Assembly: GCF_963921235.1 (NCBI RefSeq)
Contig: NC_086097.1
Coordinates: 78,370,001-78,434,000 of the forward strand
DNA: 64,000 bases
Source: Mobula hypostoma
Lineage: Eukaryota
Reading direction: 5' to 3'
This document shows, in pieces, positions 1,035 through 47,392 of this stretch. A program made the position numbers and the translations under genes. The notes below the pieces were generated by a model, which was given only the letters and a program-made list of their open reading frames with translations, did not search any database and had not been told where the DNA came from. Each line of letters opens with the position of its first letter. The first letter of the stretch is position 1.

Positions 1035-3790
1035 GACCATAAGACCACAAGACCATAAGATATTGGAGCAAAAGCAGGCCATTCAGCCCATTGTGTCTGC
1101 TCCACCATTCAACCATGGGATGATCCAATTCTTCCAGTCATTCCCCACTCCCCCTACCCTTTGATGCCCTGGCTAATCAAGAACCTATCTATCTCTGCCT
1201 TAAATGCACCCAATGACTTTAATCGCTTGTGGCAACAAATTACACAGATTTACTACCCTCTGACTAAAGTAATTTCTCTGCAGCTCAGTTCTAAATGGAC
1301 GCCCTTCAATCCTGAAGTCATGTCCTCTTGTCTTTGACTCCTCTACCATGGGAAATAACTTTACCATATCTAATCTGTTCAGGCCTTTTAACATTTGGAA
1401 TGTTTCTATGAGATCCCCCCTCATTCTCCTGAACTCCAGGGAATACAACCCAAGAGCTGCCAGATGTTCCTCATACGGTAACCCTTTCATTCCTGGAATC
1501 ATTCTTGTGAATCTTCTCTGAACCCTCTCCAATATCAGTATATCCTTTCTAAAGTAAGGAGCCCAAAACTGCACACAATACTCCAAGTGTGGTCTCACAA
1601 GTACCTTATAGAGCCTCACATCACATCCCTGCATTTATATTCTATACCTCTAGAAATGAATGCCAATATTGCATTCACCTTCTTCGCCACGGACTCAACT
1701 TGGAGGTTAACCTTTAGGGTATCCTGCACAAGGACTCCCAAGTTCCTTTGCATCTCTGCATTTTGAATTCTCTCCCCATCTAAATAATAATCTGCCCATT
1801 TATTTCTTCCACCAAAGTGTATGACCATACACTTTCCAACATTGTATTTCATTTGCCACTTCTTTCCCATTCCCCTAAACTATCCAAGTCTTTCTGCAGG
1901 CTCTCTGTTTCCTCAACACTACCCACTCCTCCATCTATTTTTGTATTATTGGCAAAGTTAGCCACAAATCCATTAATCCCATAGTCCAAATCATTGACAT
2001 ACATCGTAAAAAGCAGCAGTCCCAACACCGACCCCTGTGGAACTCCACTGGTAACCGGCAGCATGCCGGAATAAGATCCCTTTATTCCCACTCTCTGTTT
2101 TCTGCCGATCAGCCAATGCTCCACCCATGCCAGTAACTTCCCTGTAATTCCATGGGCTCTTATCTTGCTAAGCAGCCTCATGTGCGACATCTTCTCAAAG
2201 GCCTTCTGAAAATCCAAGTACACCACGTCTACTGCATCTCCTTTGTCTACACTGCTTGTAATTTCCTCAAAAAAATTGCAGTAAGTTAGTCAGGCAGGAT
2301 TTTCCTTTCAGGAAACCATGCTGGCTTTGGCCTATCTTGTCATGTGTCTCCAGGTATTCCGTAATCTCATCCCTAACAATCGATTCCAACAACTTCCCAA
2401 CCACTGATGTCAGGCTAACAGGTCTATATTTTCCTTTCTGCTGCGTCCCACCCTTCTTAAATAGCGGAGTAACATTTGTAATTTTCCAGTTATCCAGTAC
2501 AATGCCAGAATCTATCGATTCTTGAAAGATCATTGTTAATACCTCTCCAGCTACTTCCTTCAGAACCCAAGGGAGCATTCCATCGGGTCCAGGAGATTTA
2601 TCTACCCTCAGACCATTAAACTTCCTGAGCATCTTCTCGTCATAATTTTTACTGCACATACTTCACTTCCTTGACACTCTTGAATGTCGAATATATTGCA
2701 GATGTCATCCACTGTAAAGACTGATGCAAAATACGCATTCAGTTCTTCTGCCCATCTCTGCGTCTCTCACTACAATATCTCCAGTATCATTTTCTATTGG
2801 TCCTATATCTACCCTCAACTCTCTTTTACCCTTCATATACTTAAAAAAGCTTTCAGTATCTTCTTTGATATTATTCACCAGCTTCCTTTCATAATTCATC
2901 TCTTCCTTCCAAATTACCTTCTTAGTTTCCTTCTGAAAGTTTTTAAAAGCTTCCCGATCCTCTATCTTCCCACTAGCTTTGGCTTCCTTGTATGCCCTCT
3001 CTATTGCTTTTACTTTGGCTCTGACTTCACTTGTCAGCCACAGTAGTGTCCTTCTTCCATTTGAAAATTTCTTCTTATTTGGAATATATCTATCTTGCAC
3101 TTCTCCCATTTTTCGCAGAAACTCCAGCCATTGCTGCTCTTCTGTCCTTCCTGCTAGTGTCCCTTTCCAGTCAACCTTGGCTAGTTCCCCTCTCATGCCA
3201 TTGTAATTTCTTTTATTTCACTGAATTACCGACGCATTGGAATTTAGTTTCTCCTTCTTAAATTTCCAAGTGAACTCGAACATATTGTGATCACTGTTCC
3301 CTAAGGGTTTCTTAACCTTAGGCTCTCTTATCACCTCCGAATCATTGCACAACACCCAATCCAGCACAGCCAATCTCCTAGAGGGCTCAACAACAAGCTG
3401 TTCTAAAAAGCCATCCCTTAGACATTTTACAAATTCTCTCTCTTGAGGTCCAGTACTGGCCTGGTTTTCCCAATCCACTTTCATGTTAAAATCCCCAACA
3501 ATTATCATGCCATTGCCCTTCTGACATGCCTTTTCTATCTCCTGCTGTAATTTGTAATCCACATCCCAGCTGCTGTTTGGAGACTTGTATACAACTGCCT
3601 TTTACCCTTGCCATTTCTTAACTCAACCCATAGAGATTCTACACCTTCGGATCCTATGTCATCCCTTTCTAATGATTTAATATTATTTCTTATACGTAGG
3701 GCCACACCACCCCCTCTGCCTACTAACCTATCTTTCCGATACACCGTATATGCTTGGACATTCAACTCCCAGTGGCAGCCGTCCTTTACT
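1035..3790 (-). mobile_element. CR1 LINE, 5'-truncated, frameshifted ORF2 (endonuclease + RT + C-terminus)
   Basis: A chain of minus-strand ORFs: YRKDR..GRGGGVAL, IIVGDFN, LGNSDHN, KSPGPDG, YRPVSLTSVVGK, QHGFLKGKSCLTNL, YLDFQKAF, GVPQGSVLG, LVRPHLEYCVQFW, KTRGH. The short-repeat 3' tail (accataag)n is at 1036-1060. Confidence 0.92.
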
Positions 3791-3867
3791 CTTATTTCTT
3801 TGTTTTTATGTTCTCTGTCTCTGTTTGTAAATCTAACCAACCCATACAGGTTTTAATGCCTACCAGT

Positions 3868-4010
3868 GTGGCGTGTGGCCAAGTGGTTAAGACTTCGGTT
3901 TAGTGATCTGAAGGTCGCTAGTTCGAGTCTCAGCTAAGGCAGCATGTTGTGTCCTTGAGCAAGGCACTTAATCACACATTACTCTGTGATGACACCGGTG
4001 CCAAGCTGTG
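3868..4010 (+). mobile_element. tRNA-derived SINE head plus conserved central domain
   Basis: A-box-like TGGCCAAGTGG (~3876), B-box-like GTTCGAGTC (~3921), then GTGTCCTTGAGCAAGGCACTTAA, typical of SINE core domains. Confidence 0.7.
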
Positions 4011-37289: not shown

Positions 37290-40228
37290 CAACTGCTTCC
37301 AAAGTCAGTACAGTCAACAAAGATGCCTTAAAACTATTTCTGCTTGAAACTGACACAAACAATGCTGACTGGGGACAGAGTTGTCACAGGATTCGATGCA
37401 GGAAACATGGCAGCAGGTCAGCGATACAAGTGTGTTTAAGGAAACGGGGTTTTAAACTCCCAATACTGACTAGCTTGCTGGTAAACATGCAGTCTCTGGT
37501 GAATAAAATCGATGGTCTCAGAGCTAGGGTGCTGAATCAGAGGGACAGTAGGACAGCATGTGTCCTTTGTTTCACAGAATCCTAGTTAACCCCTTCTGTA
37601 CCAGATGCAGTGATTCAGATTGACAGGTTTACTATACACTGTCAGGATAGATCTATAGGGTCTCTCAAAAGCAGAGGTGGAGGAGTATGCCTCATGATCA
37701 ACTCTTCTAGGTGCACAAATATACTAGTGCTGTCCCAATTCTGCTCATCAGACCTGGAATATCTAGCAGTTAAGTGTTGTCCTTTTTACTTACCGCGGGA
37801 GATTTCTGGGATCATTTTGGTAGCAGTATACATTCCACCTCAGGCCAATGTCAATCAGGCTTTAGATGATCTGAGCAACGGGATCAACATGCATGAAACA
37901 GCGCACCCTAATGCCTTCACCATCATTTTCAAGGATTTTAACCAGACCAGTCTGAAAAAACTAAGCAATTACCACCAACAGATCACTTGCAATACTAGAG
38001 TAAACAACACACTGGACCATTGCTACACCACCATCAAGAATGCCTACCGTGCTATTCCACGCCCTCACTTCGGGAAGTCTGATCACCTGGCTGTACTTCT
38101 ATTTCCTGAGTATAGGCAGAGACTGAAGACTGCAGCACCAGTGGTGAGGACCAAGAAGCTTTGGACAAGGGAAGTGCAGGAGTGCCTACAGTACTGCTTT
38201 GAACTGGTGGACTGGACTGTATTCAGGAATTCATCTTCGAACCTGGATGAGTATGCTGCAGTTGTTGCTGACTTCATTAAAACCTGTGTGGATGAGTGTG
38301 TGCCTGCAAAGATTTACTGTACATTCCCAAACCAAAAGCCGTGGACGAACCAGGAGGTACGTCATCTGCTGAAGGCTAGATCTGTGGCATTCAAGTCTGC
38401 GACCCACCCCAGTAAACCAGGTATGATTTGCGGAGAGATGTTTCAAGGGCTAAGAGGCGACTTCGAATGTATGACAACTCTGGCAGGGTTTGCAATACAT
38501 TACTTCCTACAAAACAAAACCCAATAGCATGAATGGCAGCGATGCTTCACTACCAGATGAACTCAACGCCTTCTATGCACACTTTGAAAGGGAGAATATA
38601 ACTACAGCTGTGAAGATCCCTGCTGCACCTGATGACCCTGTGATCTCTGTCTCAGAGGCTGATGTTAGGCTGTCTTTAAAGAGACTGAACCCTCGCAAGG
38701 TAGAAGGTCCCGATGGAGTACCTGGTAAGGTTTTGAAAACCTGTGCCAACCAAATGGCGAGAGTATTCAAGGACATTTTCAACCTCTCACTGCTTCAGGC
38801 AGAAGTTCCTACTTGTTTCAAAACGGCAACAATTATACCAGTGCCTAAGAAGAATAATGTGAGCTGCCTTAATGACTATTACCTGGTAGCACTCACATCA
38901 ACAATGATGAAATGCTTTGAGTGGTTGGTCATGACTAGACTGAACTCCTGCCTCAGCAAGGACCTGGACCCATTGCAATTTGCCTATCGCCACAACAGGT
39001 CAACAGTAGATGGAATCTCAATGGCCCTTCACACAGCTTTTAACCACTAGGACAACACAAACACCTATGTCAGAATGCTGTTCATCGACTATAGCTCAGC
39101 ATTTAATACCATCATTCCCACAATTCTGATTGAGAAGTTACAGAACCTGGGCCTTTGTACCTCCCTCTGCAATTGGATCTTCGACTTCCTAACTGGAAGA
39201 CCACAATTTGTGGGGATTGGTGATAATATCTCCTCCTCACTGACTATCAACACTGGTGCACCTCTGGGATGTATGCTTAGCCCACTGCTCCACTCTGTCT
39301 ATACCCATGACTGTGTGGCTAGGCGTAGCTCAAATACCATGTATAAATTTGTTGATGATACAACCATTGTTAGTAGAATCTCAGATGGAGAGGAGAGGGC
39401 GTACAGGAGTGAGATATGCCAACTAGTGGAGTGGTGCCGTAGCAACAACCTGGCATTCCAATGTCAGTAAGACGAAAGAGCTGATTGTGCACTTCAGGAA
39501 GGGTAAGATAAACACATACCAATCCTTATAGAGGGATCAGAAGTGGAGAGAGTAGGTAGTTTCAAGTTCTTGGGTGTCAAGATCTCTGAGGACCTCACCT
39601 GGTCCCAACATATCAATACAGTTATAAAGAAGGAAAGACAAACACTATATTTCATTAGCAGTTTGAAGAGATTTGGTACGTCAACAAATACACTCAAAAA
39701 CTTCTATAGATGTACCGTGGAGAGCATTCTGACAGGCTGCATCACTGTCGGGTTTGGGGGAACGACTGCACAGGACCAAAAGAAGCTGGAGAGGGTTGCA
39801 AATTTAGTCAGTTCCATCTTGGGTACTAGCCTACAAAGTATCCAGGACATCTTCAAGGAGCGGTGTCTCAGAAATGCAGTGTTCATTATTAAGGACCTCC
39901 AGCACCCAGGGCATGCCCTTTTCTCACTGTTACCATCAAGTAGGAGGTACAGAAGCCTGAAGGCACACACTCAGAGATTCAGAAACAGCTTCTTGTCCTC
40001 TGCCATCTGATTCCTAAATGGACGTTGAACCCTTGAACGCTACCTCACTTTTTTAAATATACAGTGCATTATTTCTGTTTTTGCATGATTTTCAATCTAT
40101 TCAATATACGTATACTGTAATTGACTTACTTATTTTTTTCCTTCTATATTATGTATTGCATTGAACTGCTGCTGCTAAGTTAACAAATTTCACGACACAT
40201 GCCAGTGATAATAAACCTGATTCTGATT
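37290..40228 (+). mobile_element. Near full-length decayed Rex1/Babar LINE (endonuclease + RT)
   Basis: ORFs 37610-38527 (GGGVC, VYIPPQA, DFNQ, TLDHCY, FGKSDH), 38490-39050, 39075-39470 and 39543-40010. Tail ctgattctgatt. Confidence 0.93.
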
Positions 40229-40519
40229 ATTTGGATATAGGCCCTATGAGTATGGAAACCCTGAAGTAAAAGACATCAAAATGATGGACAGTAAAGTATT
40301 TAAAACTACAGTACATACTTGAACAACATAATTATCAAAATTTGCCATCAGAGTCAAACAAGACTTCACAAATAATAAGATCACACTTGTGCACACAAAT
40401 TACTTCTGAAGTCACCCCGTGTCAGTCCATTTCACCAGACCTATCATCTGAGATACAAGATAGCTATTTTAATCATGGTTAAATACATCTCTCAAAAACA
40501 CGGAGTGTCGCACGGAAGT

Positions 40520-40720
40520 TGTACTGTATGGCCTACATTATAATAAGGGACTACTTTATGTTGTAGTAACATGCTGTTGCATGCGGTATTAGGCGTGTAG
40601 GGATCTGTATGTGTGTGAGTAAAAGTTTGGACTCTACCAGTAAAGAACCATGAAACTTAGCTGCCGTCTCTTGCGTTTTTATTAATAACATAGTTGTGTA
40701 AACAGGCCACATACACAACA
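40520..40720 (+). repeat. 5' LTR
   Basis: Starts TGTACTG and ends ACAACA. About 18 mismatches in 201 bp versus the 3' LTR by manual count, many at CpG. Confidence 0.95.
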
Positions 40721-40723
40721 AAT

Positions 40724-40734
40724 TGGTGACGAGG
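40724..40734 (+). promoter_or_regulatory. Primer-binding site
   Basis: TGGTGACGAGG begins 3 nt after the 5' LTR; typical Gypsy PBS. Confidence 0.8.
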
Positions 40735-40788
40735 TTAATGAACCTACATCTTATCGGAACGCCGGGTTTTAGTTGATAACGACACTTG

Positions 40789-40950
40789 GAGGAAGAGCGC
40801 AAGGAACAAGCCAAGGAGTGGAAGAAGGAGGCAGAGCAGGGCCGCGAGTCCGAAAGGAAGCAGGAGCACAGCCGGAGTCGGGAACATCGGGAGGCCAAGA
40901 AACACAGTCGGAGCCGCAGCATGTCCAGCCGAGACCACAGCCAGCGCTGA
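40789..40950 (+). pseudogene. ACIN1: Captured C-terminal coding fragment of an RS/RE-rich protein, most like Acinus
   Basis: Reads EEERKEQAKEWKKEAEQGRESERKQEHSRSREHREAKKHSRSRSMSSRDHSQR*. Undoing CpG transitions gives ...KREHSRSRERREAKKHSRSRSTSSRDRGRR*, resembling the Acinus C-terminus as I recall it. The region is low complexity, so the identity is tentative. Confidence 0.65.
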
Positions 40951-41102
40951 CCCCCAGGGGCTGAGGGTCTGCCTGCCCCAGAAGGGAGATAAAAAGGAGC
41001 GACACACACATCTAGACAGAGTGCGCTCGTGGGGCTAGCAAAAAGGACACATGAGTCAAAAAGAAAAAAAGGGGGAAAAGGGGCTAACTTAACATAACAA
41101 AG

Positions 41103-42270
41103 GTGGCAATGATTGGAACCATTACAGCATTTGATAGTGGCATTGAAGACTAGGCAACTTACATTGAGAGAGTGGAGTTATATAGTGAGGCTAATGATGT
41201 TAATGATGAAAAGAAAGCCAGTGTCTTACTCAGTATTATGAGAGCAAAAACATATGGGCTGCTACAGAGCTTGTTAACCCCTGAAAAGCCAGCTGACAAA
41301 ACATTCAAGCAAATAGTAGACACTCTCCAACAGCATTAAACCCCAAACCACTGGTCATTGCTGAAAGATTTAAATTTCACAAACAGAATTAGAGCAAAAA
41401 TGAAAGCATTTCTGAACATTGTGACTTGCGCAAATTATCGGAACGTTGTCAATTTGGACCTTGTCTATCGGACACATTGAGGGACAGGTTAGTGTGCGGA
41501 ATGTGAAACCACACAGAAGAAGCTCCTGAGTGAAAAAGACCTTAATTACAGAAGGTGCCGAACATCGCAATATCAACGGAAACAGAAGCACAAGGTGCTT
41601 CAGAGGTACAAAAAAATCTCTCGAGTATGCTACGAATAAAATGTCACCAAACAGAAATGAAGGAAATAAATGTTACAATTATGGGAACATGTCACATGAC
41701 CCTGAGGACTGTTGGTTTAAAGACAAAGAATGCAGAAACTGTGGCAAACAGGGCCACATTGGCAGAGTATGCAAAGCTAGTAAACAACAGAAAACAGACA
41801 AAATACAGAGAAACAAGAAACCCCAGAAAGGAAAACACAACAATGTACACAAAATGGAAGAAATCAGTTCTGATGAAAACAACTCAGACGAAAGTGAATT
41901 GTCTTGTCTGCGGCTTCACAGCGTGAAAGAGACAGATGATTGAAGAGTAATAAGGATCACTCCACAAGTGGCAGGCGTGAGACTGAAAATGGAGTTGGAC
42001 ACAGGCTCAGCTTTAACAGTGATCTCTGTACATGACTACTAACGACTGTTTTCTCACATACCTCTGAAACGAACTAAACTACTGCTAAAGACTTTCACAG
42101 GACAGAAAGTGCGTCCCAAAGCCAAAATTAAAGTGACAGTGACCTACGGAGACAAAACACAGCAGCTGAACCTCTATGTACTGAAAAATGGAGGACCACT
42201 GTTGCTAGGACGGGAATGGCTCAGGAAAATCCAGTTGGATTGGCACACCATCAAGGCACAAGATGTGTCA
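41103..42270 (+). pseudogene. Gypsy gag + aspartic protease, with stops and frameshifts
   Basis: MIGTITAFDSGIED*ATYIERVE..KKASVLLS..PKPLVIAERFKF; knuckles CYNYG..H....C (degenerate) and CRNCGKQGHIGRVC; MELDTGS (Asp codon 41998-42000); LLGREWLRKIQLDW. Confidence 0.92.
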
Positions 42271-42836
42271 GGGGTGTATGGGGTGTCAGGGAGTGGTAGC
42301 ACCTCTGGTGGGGGAACATGTCACGTCCTTTTCAAGGCAGTTAGTCCACCTTTGGTCCCCACCTGGCACTCAGCTCTCACCTGTGGCTCCTCGTAGCTGT
42401 TTGCATGTGACAGTGGCCACACCCCGGGCAACGACTTCGACAAGCCGGCTAAATGGCTAAACCAGGTGAGGGAAGCCGATGGGTCTCAAACCCTCGGTGA
42501 GATAGGGAGATGTCTATCCCAGCATGTGAAGACAGACTCCGGCGGATTGAGTGGACAAAACCAATGGAAGGTCCAACGGTCAAGAAGACAGACTCTGCAA
42601 GCGTCATGGAACGGGTAGAGCACAACAAGACACAGAAGACGTCCTGGTTATCCACTGTGCCTAGTCCCATCTCCAGCTATCTCGACTCTGTCTTGCCATT
42701 GGATCCAGATGGGAATTGGGAAGAGAGAGTGAAGCTGACGCTGCGCAACTCTCCCTCACTTAAATCCAAATCATGCGCTAGTCTGGGCACCATCAATGGT
42801 GTCAAGGTCTTCATCGATGACAACGATGGACGAATA
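42271..42836 (+). mobile_element. Secondary 566-bp non-LTR insertion (probably a non-autonomous RTE-type element)
   Basis: Flanked by an 11-bp TSD, AAGATGTGTCA (42260-42270) and AAGATGCGTCA (42837-42847), with a short-repeat-like 3' end. The family assignment is inference. Confidence 0.7.
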
Positions 42837-42874
42837 AAGATGCGTCAACAAAGGAGGGCAGCTCGGTGGGGAGG

Positions 42875-43808
42875 ATGTCCGCAGCTCTCCTCACCCATTG
42901 TCGACTATTACAACGACAAGGAGGAGCTAAACAGCATTGACGATGAGGACGAATGCAGTATCCGTGGCCACGACTCGGATAAAGATACAGAGGAAGCAAG
43001 AGAGACAGATATTGCCAATAAGCAGGATGATGAAGACTACCTGGAAGTAAAAGGGCAGATGTACCAGGAGAAGTTGACGTCTCTCAAAGGACAGCTACAG
43101 CAGTTACAGGAAGACACTTTGCAGGAGTATCAGAAAAGGATGAAGAAACTAGATCGAAAATACATGGAAACAATACGAAATGCAGAGCTTTTTCTGCAAC
43201 TGGAGACAGAACAAGTGGAAAGGAATTATATTAAAGAGAAGAAAGCTGCAGTGAAGAGATTTGAAGATAAAAAGATTGAGTTAGAAGAAAAGAAAAAGAT
43301 GATTGAGAATGAGAGGCTAACAATGGAACTCACAGGAGAGTCTATGGAGATAGAGCCAATAATGTCTAGGAAACTAAGGAGGAGACCTAATGACCCTGTT
43401 CCAATTACAGACAAAAGATGAAAACCTGCACCTGCGCAGTTAAATTACTTGTTAACAGATGAACAGATAATGGAAGATCTGCAAACTCTCAATCGGCTTA
43501 AATCTCCAAAAAGACCAGCACCTCCGTCTTCTACTGAGCATCTTCTCAGCACTCCTGCTGAATCACCAGCACAAAGATATGAAGGACAAATAGAAGATGG
43601 AAAGTTATATTACAATAAGAGATGGTATCATAAAGGTCAGGCTATCTATTTGGAATCTAAGGAGAATACGAAGATTGGCTATGTAATTAGCTCAGTTGGA
43701 ACAAATGAGATATGGGTAAGGAAGACAAGTGATAGCACAAAGATGCGTATATATCTAGGACAGCTGCAAAGAGGAGTCTTCATTATACAGAGACGATCTG
43801 CTGCCTAG
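42875..43808 (+). pseudogene. SUDS3: Intronless copy of Sin3 histone deacetylase corepressor complex component SDS3
   Basis: [137 protein letters not shown]. Lesions: frameshift at ~42893, apparent 8-codon deletion at ~43283, and a TGA at 43419. Confidence 0.95.
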
Positions 43809-44153
43809 AACTCTTAGCAAGTTGGAGGTGCACATCTTAACTCCCTATTCTCAGAAGTCAACTTTTCATGACTTTTATATGGAAATTTGTATTAAAACAA
43901 ACAAGTTTATTGACAGTCGTTATCCAGAGAAGCAGAGAAGAACCACCCCTCCCACTAGAGACTTGAGTTATAAATGGGTCTTAGACCCAAAGTAAAAAAA
44001 AAGGCTTGTTATAATTTGATATTATTAAGTTACTTTGTTATGATTTGATATTATTAAGTTACTAAGTAAACAAATGGTAGGCGTTTGTATGTTGGGGTAG
44101 ACAAATTTGTTTAGCATAGTGACCCAGTAAAAAAAAACAGTTGATACACTATT

Positions 44154-44171
44154 AAAATAAAAGGGGAGGAG
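44154..44171 (+). promoter_or_regulatory. Polypurine tract
   Basis: AAAATAAAAGGGGAGGAG directly abuts the TG of the 3' LTR. Confidence 0.88.
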
Positions 44172-44372
44172 TGTACTGTATGGCCTACATTATAATAGGG
44201 GTCTACTTTACGTTGTAGTAACACGTCATTGCATGCGCTATTAGGTGCGTAGGGATCTGTATGTGTGTGAGTAAAAGTTCAGACTCTACCAGTAAAGAAC
44301 CATGAAACTTAGCTCCTGTTTCCCGCGTTTTTATTAATAACATAGTTGTGTAAACAGGCCACATACACAAGA
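44172..44372 (+). repeat. 3' LTR
   Basis: Collinear copy of 40520-40720. The terminal CA has changed to GA, and the TSD GAAGT follows. Confidence 0.95.
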
Positions 44373-44639
44373 GAAGTGAAACAATAAAAACTATATTATC
44401 ACTAGGCGTGTCACTGAAAAACATACTGTTAGGTTGGAGATGTGAGCAGCAGCAAAACTTGGATCTATAGAAGGACAAGATATAGGGCAGTGAACCCCTT
44501 CCTATTATCCAAGGAAAAAAACAAAGTTGAGTCAGAGAAGAAAATTGAGAAGAATGGTGAAAAGGTGATTGTTCAGCTCGATTTACTCACTTTGTAAGGT
44601 TCACTTTGATTCCACTAATGTATTCACTCATAATCTCAT

Positions 44640-47392
44640 GAACCCCTACAGTCCCTAATGATACTGTGATTTCATTCTCTGAGGCTGATGAGAGACTTTC
44701 CTGCAGGAATATGAATCCATGGAAAGCATCTCGCCCAGATAGCTCAACTGGCCCAGTTCTAAAGACCTGTGCTAATTTACTGGTTGCAGAGTTTATGGAC
44801 ATCTTCAGCTTCTTGTTTTGGAGTCTGAGGTACCCAAGAGGAACGTGGTAACCTGCCTCAGTGACTATTTAGTCCAGTAGCACTCACATCCACTGTGATG
44901 AAGTTCTTTGAGAGGTTGGTCGTGAAGCATAACAATTCTTGTCTGAGGAGTGACTGGGATCTATTCCAGTTTGCCTACTGTCACAACAGGTCAACTGCAG
45001 ATGCCATTTCATTGGCCCTTGACTCAGCTCTGGAGCATCTGGACAATGAAGGTGCCTATATCAGGATGCTCTTCATTGGCTACAGCTCAGCATTCGATAC
45101 TATCATCCCCTTGAATCTAATCACTAAGCTCCAAGACCTAGGCCTTAATACCTTCCTATGCAACTGGATCCTTTATTTTCTCACTTGCATACCCCAGTTA
45201 GTATGGATTGGCAACAACATCTAATCTACGATCGCCTTCAGCAAACTGTGAGATTAACCCCCTACTCTACTCATTTTATACCTATGATTGTGTGGCTAAG
45301 TGCAGCTCCAACATCATATTTAAGTTTCGAATATCAAAGCATATTTATTATCAAAGTACATATATGTCATCATATACAATCCTGAGAATCATTTGCTTAC
45401 AGACATACTCAATAAATCCAATAACCATAATAGAATCAATGAAAGTCCACACCAACAGAGCAGACAACCAGTGTGCAGAAGACAACAAACTGTTCAAATA
45501 CAAAAAGAAAGAAGAAAAAAAGAACTACATGCTGGACCCAGGACAGATCCTCTGAAATGAAAAAAAACTGAGGAATTTAAAGTTGCTGACGTTCTCCGCC
45601 TCTGATTCCCCGATGGGGACTGGTTCACGGACCTCCAGTTTCCTACTTCTGAAGTCAATAATCAACTGCTTGGTCTTGCTGACATTGAGTAAGAGACTGT
45701 TGTTGTTTCAATCGCCCTCTTCTATGCTGATTCATCACCTCCTCTAATTCGGCCTACAACAGTGGTGTCGTCAGCAAACAGATATGACATTGGAGCTGTG
45801 CTTAGCCACACAATCATAAGTTTAGACTGAGTAGAGCAGGGGGCTAAGCACACAGCCTTGTGGTGTACCTGCAGTGATGGACATTGTGGAGGAGGTGTTG
45901 TCAATCGAAACTGACTAGGGTCTGCAAGTGAGGAAATCAAGGATCCAATTGCACAAGCAAGTATTGAGGCACAGGTCTTGGAGCTTATTGATTAGTTTTG
46001 AGGGGATGATAGTACTAAATGCCGAGCTGTAGTCAATAAAGAGCACTCTGATGTATGTATAAAGAGCCCATGAAAATGGCATTTGCGTGAATCTATTGTG
46101 CTGGTAGGCAAATTGGAGTGGATCCAAGTCACTTCTCAAGCAGGAGTGATACATTTCTTCACCAACACTTCATCACTATGGAGGTAAGTGCTACTGGATA
46201 TGTGGCAGGTTATCACATTCTTCTTAGGTACTGGTATAACTGAAGTCTGCTTGAAACAGGTGGGTACTTCAGACTGCCAAAGCGGAAGATTAAAGATCTC
46301 AATGAACACTCCAGCCAGTTTCAGCACAGGTCTTTAGCACTCGGTCAGGTTCCCCACCTGGGCTGGATGCTTTCCAAGGGTTCACCCTCCAGAAGGGATC
46401 TTCCCACATCGGACTCATAGGTTGAAATTACAGGGTCCTAGGGGCTGGGAGAGTTGGTGATAACATCTCTGTTGCTAGTCGAATCAAAGGTTGTAATGAA
46501 TCGGCACATACATAGGATTGAGATTGAAAATGTGGTCCAATGGTGCCACGACAACCTCTCACTCAACATCAGCAAAACCAAAGAAACCCTCGGTCAATGA
46601 ACCGGTTTTCATTAAAGGATTGTAGATGGAGAGAGTGGGTAATTATAAATTCCTTACTGTTATCATATTAGAGGATCTGTCCTAGGACCAACACATAAAT
46701 GCCATCATAAAGAAGGTCAACTGTGCCTCTGCTTAGAGGTTTGTGTTGGTTCAGCACGCCATCAAAAACTTCAACAAATTTCTACAGATGCAGAGTGGAG
46801 AGTATCTTAACTGGTTGCATCATGGCCTGCTATGGAAACACCAAATCCCAGGAATGGAAAAGTCTACACAAAGTGGTGGATATTGCCCAGTCCATCACAG
46901 GCAAAGCCCTCCCCACCATTCTGCACCGTTACATGGAACATTGCCATATGAAAGGAGCATCCATCATGAAAGACACTCATCATCCAGGTCATGCTCTCTT
47001 CCCACAAATACCATTGGGCAGGAGGTACAGGAGCCTTAAGTTCACACCAGTAATTATCCTACAACCACCAAGGAACAGTAATTATCCTACAACCACCAAG
47101 TAACTCAACTGACATGTAACTTTACACACCTCAACTCTAAACTGATTCCACATCTTACAGACTCACTTTCAAGGACTCGACAATTCATATCCTTAATATT
47201 ATTTATATTTTTACTTGCATAATTTATCTTCTGCATATTGGTTGTTTGTAAGGCTTTGTTTAATATACCATTTGTAGTTTTTTCATAACTTCTTTTTATT
47301 TTCTTGTAAATAGCTGCAAGAAAATGAATCTTAAGGTAGTATATGATGATATATCTGTACTTTGATAATAAATTTACTTAGACTTTGACTAA
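44640..47392 (+). mobile_element. Rex1 LINE (plus strand) split by an antisense Rex1 (~45330-46480)
   Basis: Plus-strand RT fragments at 44666-45330 and 46480-47103; minus-strand RT fragments at 45722-46327; tail ctttgact. Confidence 0.85.

Follow-up and report, generated by a model that had tools for sequence, protein, structure and literature searches.

A Ty3/Gypsy retrotransposon family of the ray Mobula hypostoma with a spliced SUDS3 segment in the frame of its Gag and protease, probably a helper-dependent derivative of autonomous relatives

Introduction

The gag-onc viruses carry host coding sequence in frame with Gag, have lost replication genes and need a helper, while the maize element Bs1 carries fragments of three plant genes. 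Here we describe an arrangement with features of both in a Ty3/Gypsy long terminal repeat (LTR) retrotransposon of the ray Mobula hypostoma, in which a spliced segment of the host gene SUDS3 (product SDS3) stands behind gag and the protease (PR). The copy from which the analysis started lies in a stretch of 64,000 nucleotides (NCBI RefSeq assembly GCF_963921235.1, contig NC_086097.1, positions 78,370,001 to 78,434,000 of the forward strand), henceforth the window, whose own numbering is used throughout. One complete but decayed copy of the element occupies 40520-44372 on its + strand.

The closest described process is LTR-mediated retroposition (Tan et al. 2016, Genome Res 26:1663, PMC5131818), in which, according to the parts of that paper drawn upon here, internal open reading frames (ORFs) are replaced by partial mRNAs at points with a median microsimilarity of 6 bp and the products may undergo secondary retroposition; microsimilarity at the fusion points is also reported there for the capture of FAM8A1. 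On the genomic side, the available portion of a census of retrocopies in 244 vertebrate genomes (bioRxiv 10.64898/2026.06.26.734816) names SUDS3 as one of the leading retrocopy parents of cartilaginous fishes; that portion ties retrocopy numbers to non-LTR elements and selective filtering, and LTR capture goes unmentioned in it. A search of titles and abstracts for SUDS3 together with retrotransposons returned no description of the chimera. The mechanism is thus already in print, and what is new here is the direct test of the founder's reading frame and the resolution of the joints to the base.

Results

A single Gag-protease-SDS3 frame in the founder

An initial annotation, made from the letters of the window alone, had claimed that an in-frame Gag-protease-SDS3 fusion emerges once a later insertion and one copy of its target duplication are removed. 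When the whole element was used as a query against the genome of the window (3.48 Gb), 38 other copies were recovered at 85-91% identity, each of which jumps from query position 1771 to 2339 with ~10 bases overlapping, i.e., without the insertion; in a MAFFT alignment of the 39 copies, 577 extra columns are filled in the window copy alone. The boundaries proposed for the removal, with AAGATGTGTCA ending at 42270 and AAGATGCGTCA starting at 42837, are exact, and the proposed reading across the joint is likewise right: WHTIKA(Q/L)D(A/V)STKEGSS.GK-MSAALL. In 36 of the 38 other copies the end of the protease runs into the SUDS3 leader as TGG CAC ACC ATC AAG GCA CTA GAT GTG TCA ACA AAG GAG GGC AGC TCG GCG GGG AAG ATG TCC, which places the SUDS3 ATG in the gag-protease frame as claimed. 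Over the 33 codons from the tryptophan (W) at the protease end to the DYYN of SDS3, 32/38 are both in frame and open; among the remaining six, four differ by nothing but a stop at the W codon, a fifth carries 5 inserted nt and the sixth is disrupted by another insertion. The zinc knuckles and the protease also share this frame, as seen in the window ORFs 41530..41943 and 42043..42396.

In the founder, the same frame extended over gag, protease and SUDS3. From the gag ATG (41109) to the SUDS3 ATG (42875) there are 1200 shared columns, and from the latter to the SUDS3 stop 933, both divisible by 3 (shared columns being alignment columns filled in at least half of the 39 copies, with no consensus built). 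No indel is common to three or more of the 39 copies, and stops recur only at CGA codons (TGA beside CAA and surviving CGA) or TGG codons, a pattern that reads as CpG and TGG decay. The commonest of them, at codon 315, is found in 22 of 37 copies whose distribution is unclustered (permutation p 0.58). Taken together, these alignments point to a founder with one Gag-PR-SDS3 frame of 711 codons. A division into subfamilies by either this stop or the parental T at SDS3 nt 128 was considered and rejected, since carriers do not cluster (p 0.58 and 0.56, respectively).

The initial annotation had further asked whether three lesions of the window copy are private to it, and the answers differ. The frameshift at ~42893 is private, being a 2-bp deletion after 42889 of bases present in 38/38 other copies. 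The deletion at ~43283 is not, with at least 147 of 150 scored loci having the 24-nt-shorter form, and neither is the stop at 43419 (TGA at 43419-43421), where CGA has become TGA or TAA in 13/39 copies and is retained in 24. Disabling lesions common to all copies and an out-of-frame joint were both looked for, and neither was found. Four single copies are open through gag, protease and SDS3 over 573, 560, 501 and 497 residues, the first of these being the longest open frame among the best 150 of 338 loci matched by a query from the middle of SDS3. A polyprotein may have been made, cleaved or useful at the outset.

Contigs from four public runs contain the uninterrupted PR-SUDS3 joint. The joint is present in contigs of runs X1 and X10, which are only presumed to be RNA; X10 also has parental intron sequence, so that these contigs say nothing about transcription.

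Replacement of pol by a spliced host segment

The gag-protease part is 57% identical to P0121, a teleost gag-pol polyprotein of 1311 residues encoded in a single ORF, whose Pfam domains follow the Ty3/Gypsy order of protease, reverse transcriptase (RT), RNase H and integrase. An RT query from P0121 against the ray genome gave 39930 candidates, of which 139 were scored, and the DNA upstream of the RT in these same-genome relatives is 84-90% identical to the leader, gag and protease of the chimera. The autonomous relatives are ~4.7 kb long, and the stretch between the two joints is occupied in them by RT, RNase H and integrase: where RT follows PR in them, the chimera enters SUDS3. The cargo is followed by ~17 codons from the end of pol, the pol stop and an A-run that the autonomous copies share, and the sequence of 43919..44171, including this A-run, is also present in the autonomous loci L087 and L089. 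Hence, comparison of the two forms indicates that pol was replaced, not interrupted, by the cargo. The A-run at 43990 was also considered as the poly(A) tail of the captured mRNA and rejected, as the autonomous elements have the same run.

The joints themselves can be read against both parents (slashes mark the joint). At the 5' joint, the autonomous elements have ...AAAGGAGGGCAGC/AAGGCTACA... (also given as ...AAAGGAGGGCAGC/AAGGCTACATCT...), parental exon 1 has ...GGCGGGCAGC/TCGGCGGGGAAGATG... and the chimera has ...AAAGGAGGGCAGC/TCGGCGGGGAAGATG.... At the 3' joint, the autonomous elements have ...CAGGACAGAC/GTTACCCAGAG... (GTTACC from the junction onward), the parental 3' untranslated region (UTR) has ...TTGACAGAC/TGAAGAAC..., diverging after TTGACAGAC, and the chimera has ...TTGACAGAC/GTTACCC.... 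Both lie on seven shared bases, GGGCAGC on the 5' side and GACAGAC on the 3' side, and the same two joints are found in every copy examined. The cargo extends from 12-19 nt before the SUDS3 ATG to 108 nt past the stop.

A small LTR element of another Gypsy lineage, with 24% identity to P0121 over gag-PR, was noted at locus L092 (1878-4001 of the locus; C1 ~63673477-63675600). Its LTRs lie at 1878-2072 and 3807-4001, and one open frame, 3161..3547, joins its protease end to a foreign, putatively coiled-coil cargo. Two further loci, L093 and L094, gave no match to P0121 and are too decayed for a quick check of their frames.

The donor gene and the changes fixed in the family

The parental SUDS3 gene lies on another contig (C78, minus strand), with 12 exons over ~59 kb and a product of 319 residues, which equals the annotated Mobula birostris SDS3 except for 8 residues in the annotation that resemble a retained intron. 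All 11 of its introns are missing from the copies, including intron 7, of which the copies carry the correctly spliced joint. That intron (L063/L062, C78 ~8398854 and 8395736) is of the AT-AC kind, with AT-AC ends and /ATATCCTT matching the U12-type pattern. As a separate observation, a contig of run X10 (window ~43621) has the end of SUDS3 exon 10 running into the start of exon 2, which may be a back-spliced (circular) transcript or an assembly artefact.

Coiled coil, Sin3-interaction domain and C-terminal domain of SDS3 (PDB 4zqa, 2n2h, 7sxi) are all kept in the cargo, the family's 8-residue loss falling inside the (dimerisation) coiled coil. In the parental gene the corresponding 24 nt are part of exon 6, with a TGAGTT direct repeat on either side, and a 40-residue query over this site found the full sequence at one place only, the parental exon, among the best 150 of 338 candidates. 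Alternative splicing as the source of the loss was rejected, the bases being internal to exon 6 between the repeats. Locus L072 (C58 ~4449800), considered as an intermediate that keeps the 24 nt, was likewise set aside: it is one of the chimera copies, and the 18-nt change that it has at this place is private and not parental sequence.

At least 92% of the copies differ from the parental gene at each of 10 synonymous sites, to which two more are added when CpG decay in the copies is allowed for. Replacements comprise P179T and S255G, both in 95% of copies, and S43R in 29/39. For these replacements, as for the 8-residue loss, the derived state is that of the element: Pristis and Mobula SDS3 and the human chains (4zqa, 7sxi) show the parental states. 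In Mobula birostris, the annotations include 311-residue 'SDS3-like' proteins with the 8-residue loss, T179 and G255.

Copy number, integration and age

A 128-residue query from the C-terminal part of SDS3 gave 523 candidates, and the 150 that were scored are all full length and intron-free; the query from the middle of SDS3 gave 338, of which 150 were again scored. At all 14 loci checked, the element is flanked by a 5-bp target-site duplication that differs from locus to locus (8/14 perfect, 6/14 with one mismatch), so the copies are separate integrations. The element in the window has a matching empty site in related organisms: in contigs of the public runs X20 and X24 (organisms K and M), 40505 is directly followed by 44372 and the element is missing, with ~94% identity over the flanks 40300-40505 and 44372-44563. 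This empty site suggests that the element integrated here close in time to a species split.

The tree of the 39 copies is star-like, with a mean terminal branch of 0.062 and an internal branch sum of 0.088 vs a terminal sum of 2.40; the median LTR-LTR distance is 0.103 over the 27 copies with both LTRs (12 copies lacking LTR sequence were skipped). Branch lengths of this shape are what a single old burst would leave. The 12 fixed synonymous changes over 192 synonymous sites amount to ~0.06, a value that matches the terminal branch length; change in the parental lineage by itself is enough to explain them, and therefore the time from capture to burst would have been short.

Architecture of the window copy

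The features of the window copy are collected in Table 1. Additional evidence for the protease comes from a sister copy, on which Pfam gag-asp_proteas is matched.

Table 1. Features of the SUDS3-carrying Ty3/Gypsy copy, in window coordinates
Feature	Positions	Strand	Remarks
Target-site duplication GAAGT, left copy (5 bp)	40515..40519	+	identical 5 bases at 44373-44377
5' LTR, TG...CA, 201 bp	40520..40720	+	91% identity to 44172-44372
Leader	40721..41108	+	candidate primer-binding-like stretch starting TGG at ~40724
gag, decayed	41109..41943	+	CCHC knuckles 41671-41712 and 41731-41772; Pfam DUF7083 and zf-CCHC, both matches under curated cut-offs
Retropepsin-type protease and PR-RT linker	41944..42270	+	D-T-G at 41998-42006; aligns to P0121 residues 294-404
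Target duplication of later insertion, left copy AAGATGTGTCA	42260..42270	+	single occurrence of site in other copies
SINE-like repeat (short interspersed element), private insertion, ~560 bp	42271..42836	+	window copy alone among 39
Target duplication of later insertion, right copy AAGATGCGTCA	42837..42847	+	
5' capture joint, 7-nt microhomology GGGCAGC	42856..42862	+	common to PR-RT linker and SUDS3 5'UTR
Captured SUDS3 coding sequence, 311 codons in family	42875..43808	+	all 11 parental introns absent; Pfam Sds3
SUDS3 3'UTR, 108 nt, ending at 3' capture joint	43809..43918	+	GACAGAC at 43912-43918; GACAGTC in window
Element's own 3' end	43919..44171	+	last ~17 pol codons, stop relic 43971-43973, A-run 43990-44002, polypurine tract 44159-44171
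3' LTR	44172..44372	+	91% identity to 5' LTR; polypurine tract directly upstream
Target-site duplication GAAGT, right copy	44373..44377	+	

The private insertion at 42271-42836 is a SINE-like retroposon that landed later than the element, because it has thousands of candidate copies, target duplications of its own and CAA-type tails. Specifically, the 566-bp inserted body has 5359 candidate places genome-wide, and the 40 scored are all full length at 91-93% identity; its 11-bp duplication in the window (AAGATGTGTCA/AAGATGCGTCA) has one mismatch, and in five other copies the repeat is flanked by separate duplications of 7-13 bp and ends in a short CAA-type tail. A tRNA head was not recognised in it, and Rfam gave only a chance-level match (E 0.47). 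An open frame of 306 residues, 42501-43421, runs from inside this insertion into SDS3; it arises because the private 2-bp deletion moves SDS3 into a frame that is open in the repeat, the last 337 nt of which are stop-free in it, and is probably due to chance.

Several other observations concern the ends of the element and its surroundings. A 25-bp indel at ~40594 divides the LTRs, in other copies too, into two forms of ~198 and ~223 bp, and in five copies (L046, L033, L039, L043 and L022) the 5' LTR is of the short and the 3' LTR of the long form, which is unexpected if the two LTRs are identical at integration. Within the leader, 40794-40980 holds an E/K/R/S-rich open frame of 55-56 residues that is kept open in many copies. 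Queried against the genome, its 56 residues matched only element copies among the best 150 of 939 candidates. The segment (~187 bp) is found in only some of the autonomous relatives, being absent from L079, L083 and others and present in L090; the idea that it is a second captured gene fragment was rejected, as its presence in the autonomous L090 makes it a subfamily trait. Fragments of long interspersed elements (LINEs), with endonuclease and RT domains, surround the LTR element at 37586-40010 and 44587-47100, and the LTR element integrated into one of them.

Discussion

Origin of the chimera and the competing explanations

We consider it very probable that these copies constitute a helper-dependent Ty3/Gypsy family in which the RT-RNase H-integrase region was replaced by a spliced SUDS3 segment in the Gag-protease frame, likely through two template switches of the RT, and whose founder would have encoded a polyprotein of 711 residues. 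Briefly, the following course of events is plausible. A SUDS3 mRNA would have been co-packaged in a virus-like particle, where minus-strand synthesis might have left the 3' region of the element for the SUDS3 3'UTR at GACAGAC and then returned at GGGCAGC to the PR-RT linker. A switch of this kind could also account for the 24-nt loss between the TGAGTT repeats. Enzymes supplied in trans by autonomous relatives would then have copied the chimera, in a single burst shortly after the capture. The SDS3 part was, most likely, a passenger.

Several points weigh against this account or bound it. Template switching is deduced from the structure of the joints rather than observed. The 711-codon frame is intact in 0/43 copies inspected, with at least one stop or frameshift in each of the 39 aligned ones. 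These 39 are the best-scoring copies, not a random sample, and the size of the family, at least 150 copies with up to ~520 candidates, is given as lower bounds from the part of the candidates that was scored. An in-frame joint has a prior of only ~0.3, the about 1 in 3 that the initial annotation had already allowed for, so that the joint is real and its importance not established. Finally, substitutions in SDS3 carry no signal of selection: the pairwise ratio of nonsynonymous to synonymous rates (dN/dS) among copies is 0.60 in frame and 0.51 and 0.73 in the shifted frames. The corresponding figures are 0.61 against 0.49 and 0.73 for the protease and 0.47 against 0.73 and 0.66 for gag (L042 and L047, poorly aligned, were excluded from the dN/dS and clustering tests). 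Decay of the cargo since insertion thus looks neutral, and selection on the founder itself is unreadable because the interval from capture to burst is too short. As for the ancestral Gag-PR-SDS3 proposed in the initial annotation, the continuous frame of the founder bears it out, whereas the neutral look of the SDS3 part since insertion counts in part against it.

Among the other ways of producing such a locus, a LINE-mediated processed SUDS3 pseudogene might have landed in a Gypsy copy and been spread by segmental duplication, an idea suggested by the A-run behind the SUDS3 segment and the many LINE fragments in the window. However, that A-run belongs to the autonomous elements too; the SUDS3 segment stops inside the 3'UTR, with poly(A) tail and flanking duplication both absent; pol is replaced rather than interrupted; and no copy lacks an LTR pair, flanks and a 5-bp duplication of its own, all of which make this origin extremely improbable. 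A different issue is whether the fusion was favoured, and for which of its properties. It could have been favoured as such, with the cargo residues irrelevant, if spread needs a long frame that stays open to near the 3' end, e.g., by sparing the RNA from early-stop decay or by coupling translation to packaging. The single-ORF gag-pol of the autonomous relatives (P0121) would fit this, as would the end of the chimera's frame, which at ~365 nt before the 3' LTR is near the pol end of autonomous copies, and the protease end and putative coiled-coil cargo in one open frame in the unrelated Gypsy family of L092. Against this, there are two families only, and two in-frame joints would be expected by chance in ~1 in 9 cases; that 2/2 families are in frame is suggestive, no more, and selection for the frame is in our estimation unlikely, if still to be reckoned with.

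Alternatively, the SDS3 moiety may itself have served the element, with the fusion or a released SDS3 binding Sin3/HDAC (histone deacetylase) and so blunting silencing or steering particles to chromatin, which would partly explain the hundreds of copies. The retention of all three solved SDS3 domains, a founder only 2-3 residues and the 8-residue loss away from the host protein, and a family unusually large for an LTR-mediated retrocopy could all be taken in this sense; yet the dN/dS values offer this role no signal of selection, and a burst directly after the capture would in any case leave the cargo nearly identical to the parent. Such a role in the spread of the element is possible and unsupported, and we hold it to be very unlikely. 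A more general scheme would combine these elements: single-ORF Gypsy elements of the ray lineage would repeatedly spawn helper-dependent derivatives with host cargo in frame behind the protease and the frame under selection, and the fused SUDS3 would engage or poison Sin3/HDAC silencing, whence the hundreds of copies and the top-parent rank in cartilaginous fishes. This we put forward as a speculation that is quite unlikely to hold in full.

Implications

Under the preferred account, that of a helper-dependent derivative formed by template switching with SDS3 as a passenger, the locus provides a base-level view of how a vertebrate LTR retrotransposon would take up a complete host coding sequence, with the switch points, the donor and the autonomous partner all in one genome. 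It also offers a case in which a continuous frame of Gag, PR and a host protein was then multiplied to hundreds of copies. Further, it suggests a mechanical reason for the top rank of SUDS3 as a retrocopy parent: the copies would have hitch-hiked on a single element instead of arising by many separate retropositions or being retained by selection. Since the cargo encodes a subunit of the Sin3/HDAC silencing complex, and given a second family with cargo in frame, the question of whether it was the frame or the cargo that mattered becomes testable.

Comparison with known systems

The hallmarks of LTR-mediated retrocopies are all present in the SUDS3 family: an intron-free cargo, an LTR pair with a target duplication, replaced sequence, two microhomologies and secondary retroposition. 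As far as the consulted parts of Tan et al. (PMC5131818) describe them, those retrocopies are alike in that a spliced host mRNA, partial and without poly(A), replaces internal ORFs between two retained LTRs and in their further retroposition as a non-autonomous element; the microsimilarity at their joints has a median of 6 bp vs 7 and 7 in the SUDS3 chimera. Unlike them, the chimera is a family of at least 150 copies in a cartilaginous fish, and its complete coding sequence continues the frame of Gag-protease. The same source cites maize Bs1 and the capture of FAM8A1 by HERV-K, which are similar in having pieces of host genes between LTRs; FAM8A1, as presented there, is a single untranscribed pseudogene, unlike the SUDS3 family, and neither of the two is a vertebrate family of hundreds of copies.

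The likeness to gag-onc viruses, drawn already in the initial annotation, extends to the architecture, an in-frame Gag fusion with lost replication genes, and to the probable dependence of the chimera on a helper. As kinds of element the two differ, the chimera being a Ty3/Gypsy retrotransposon rather than a retrovirus. In contrast to those viruses, the SUDS3 chimera has no known cargo effect, is env-less and fixed in the germ line, keeps its protease and has both its joints in spliced mRNA at microhomologies.

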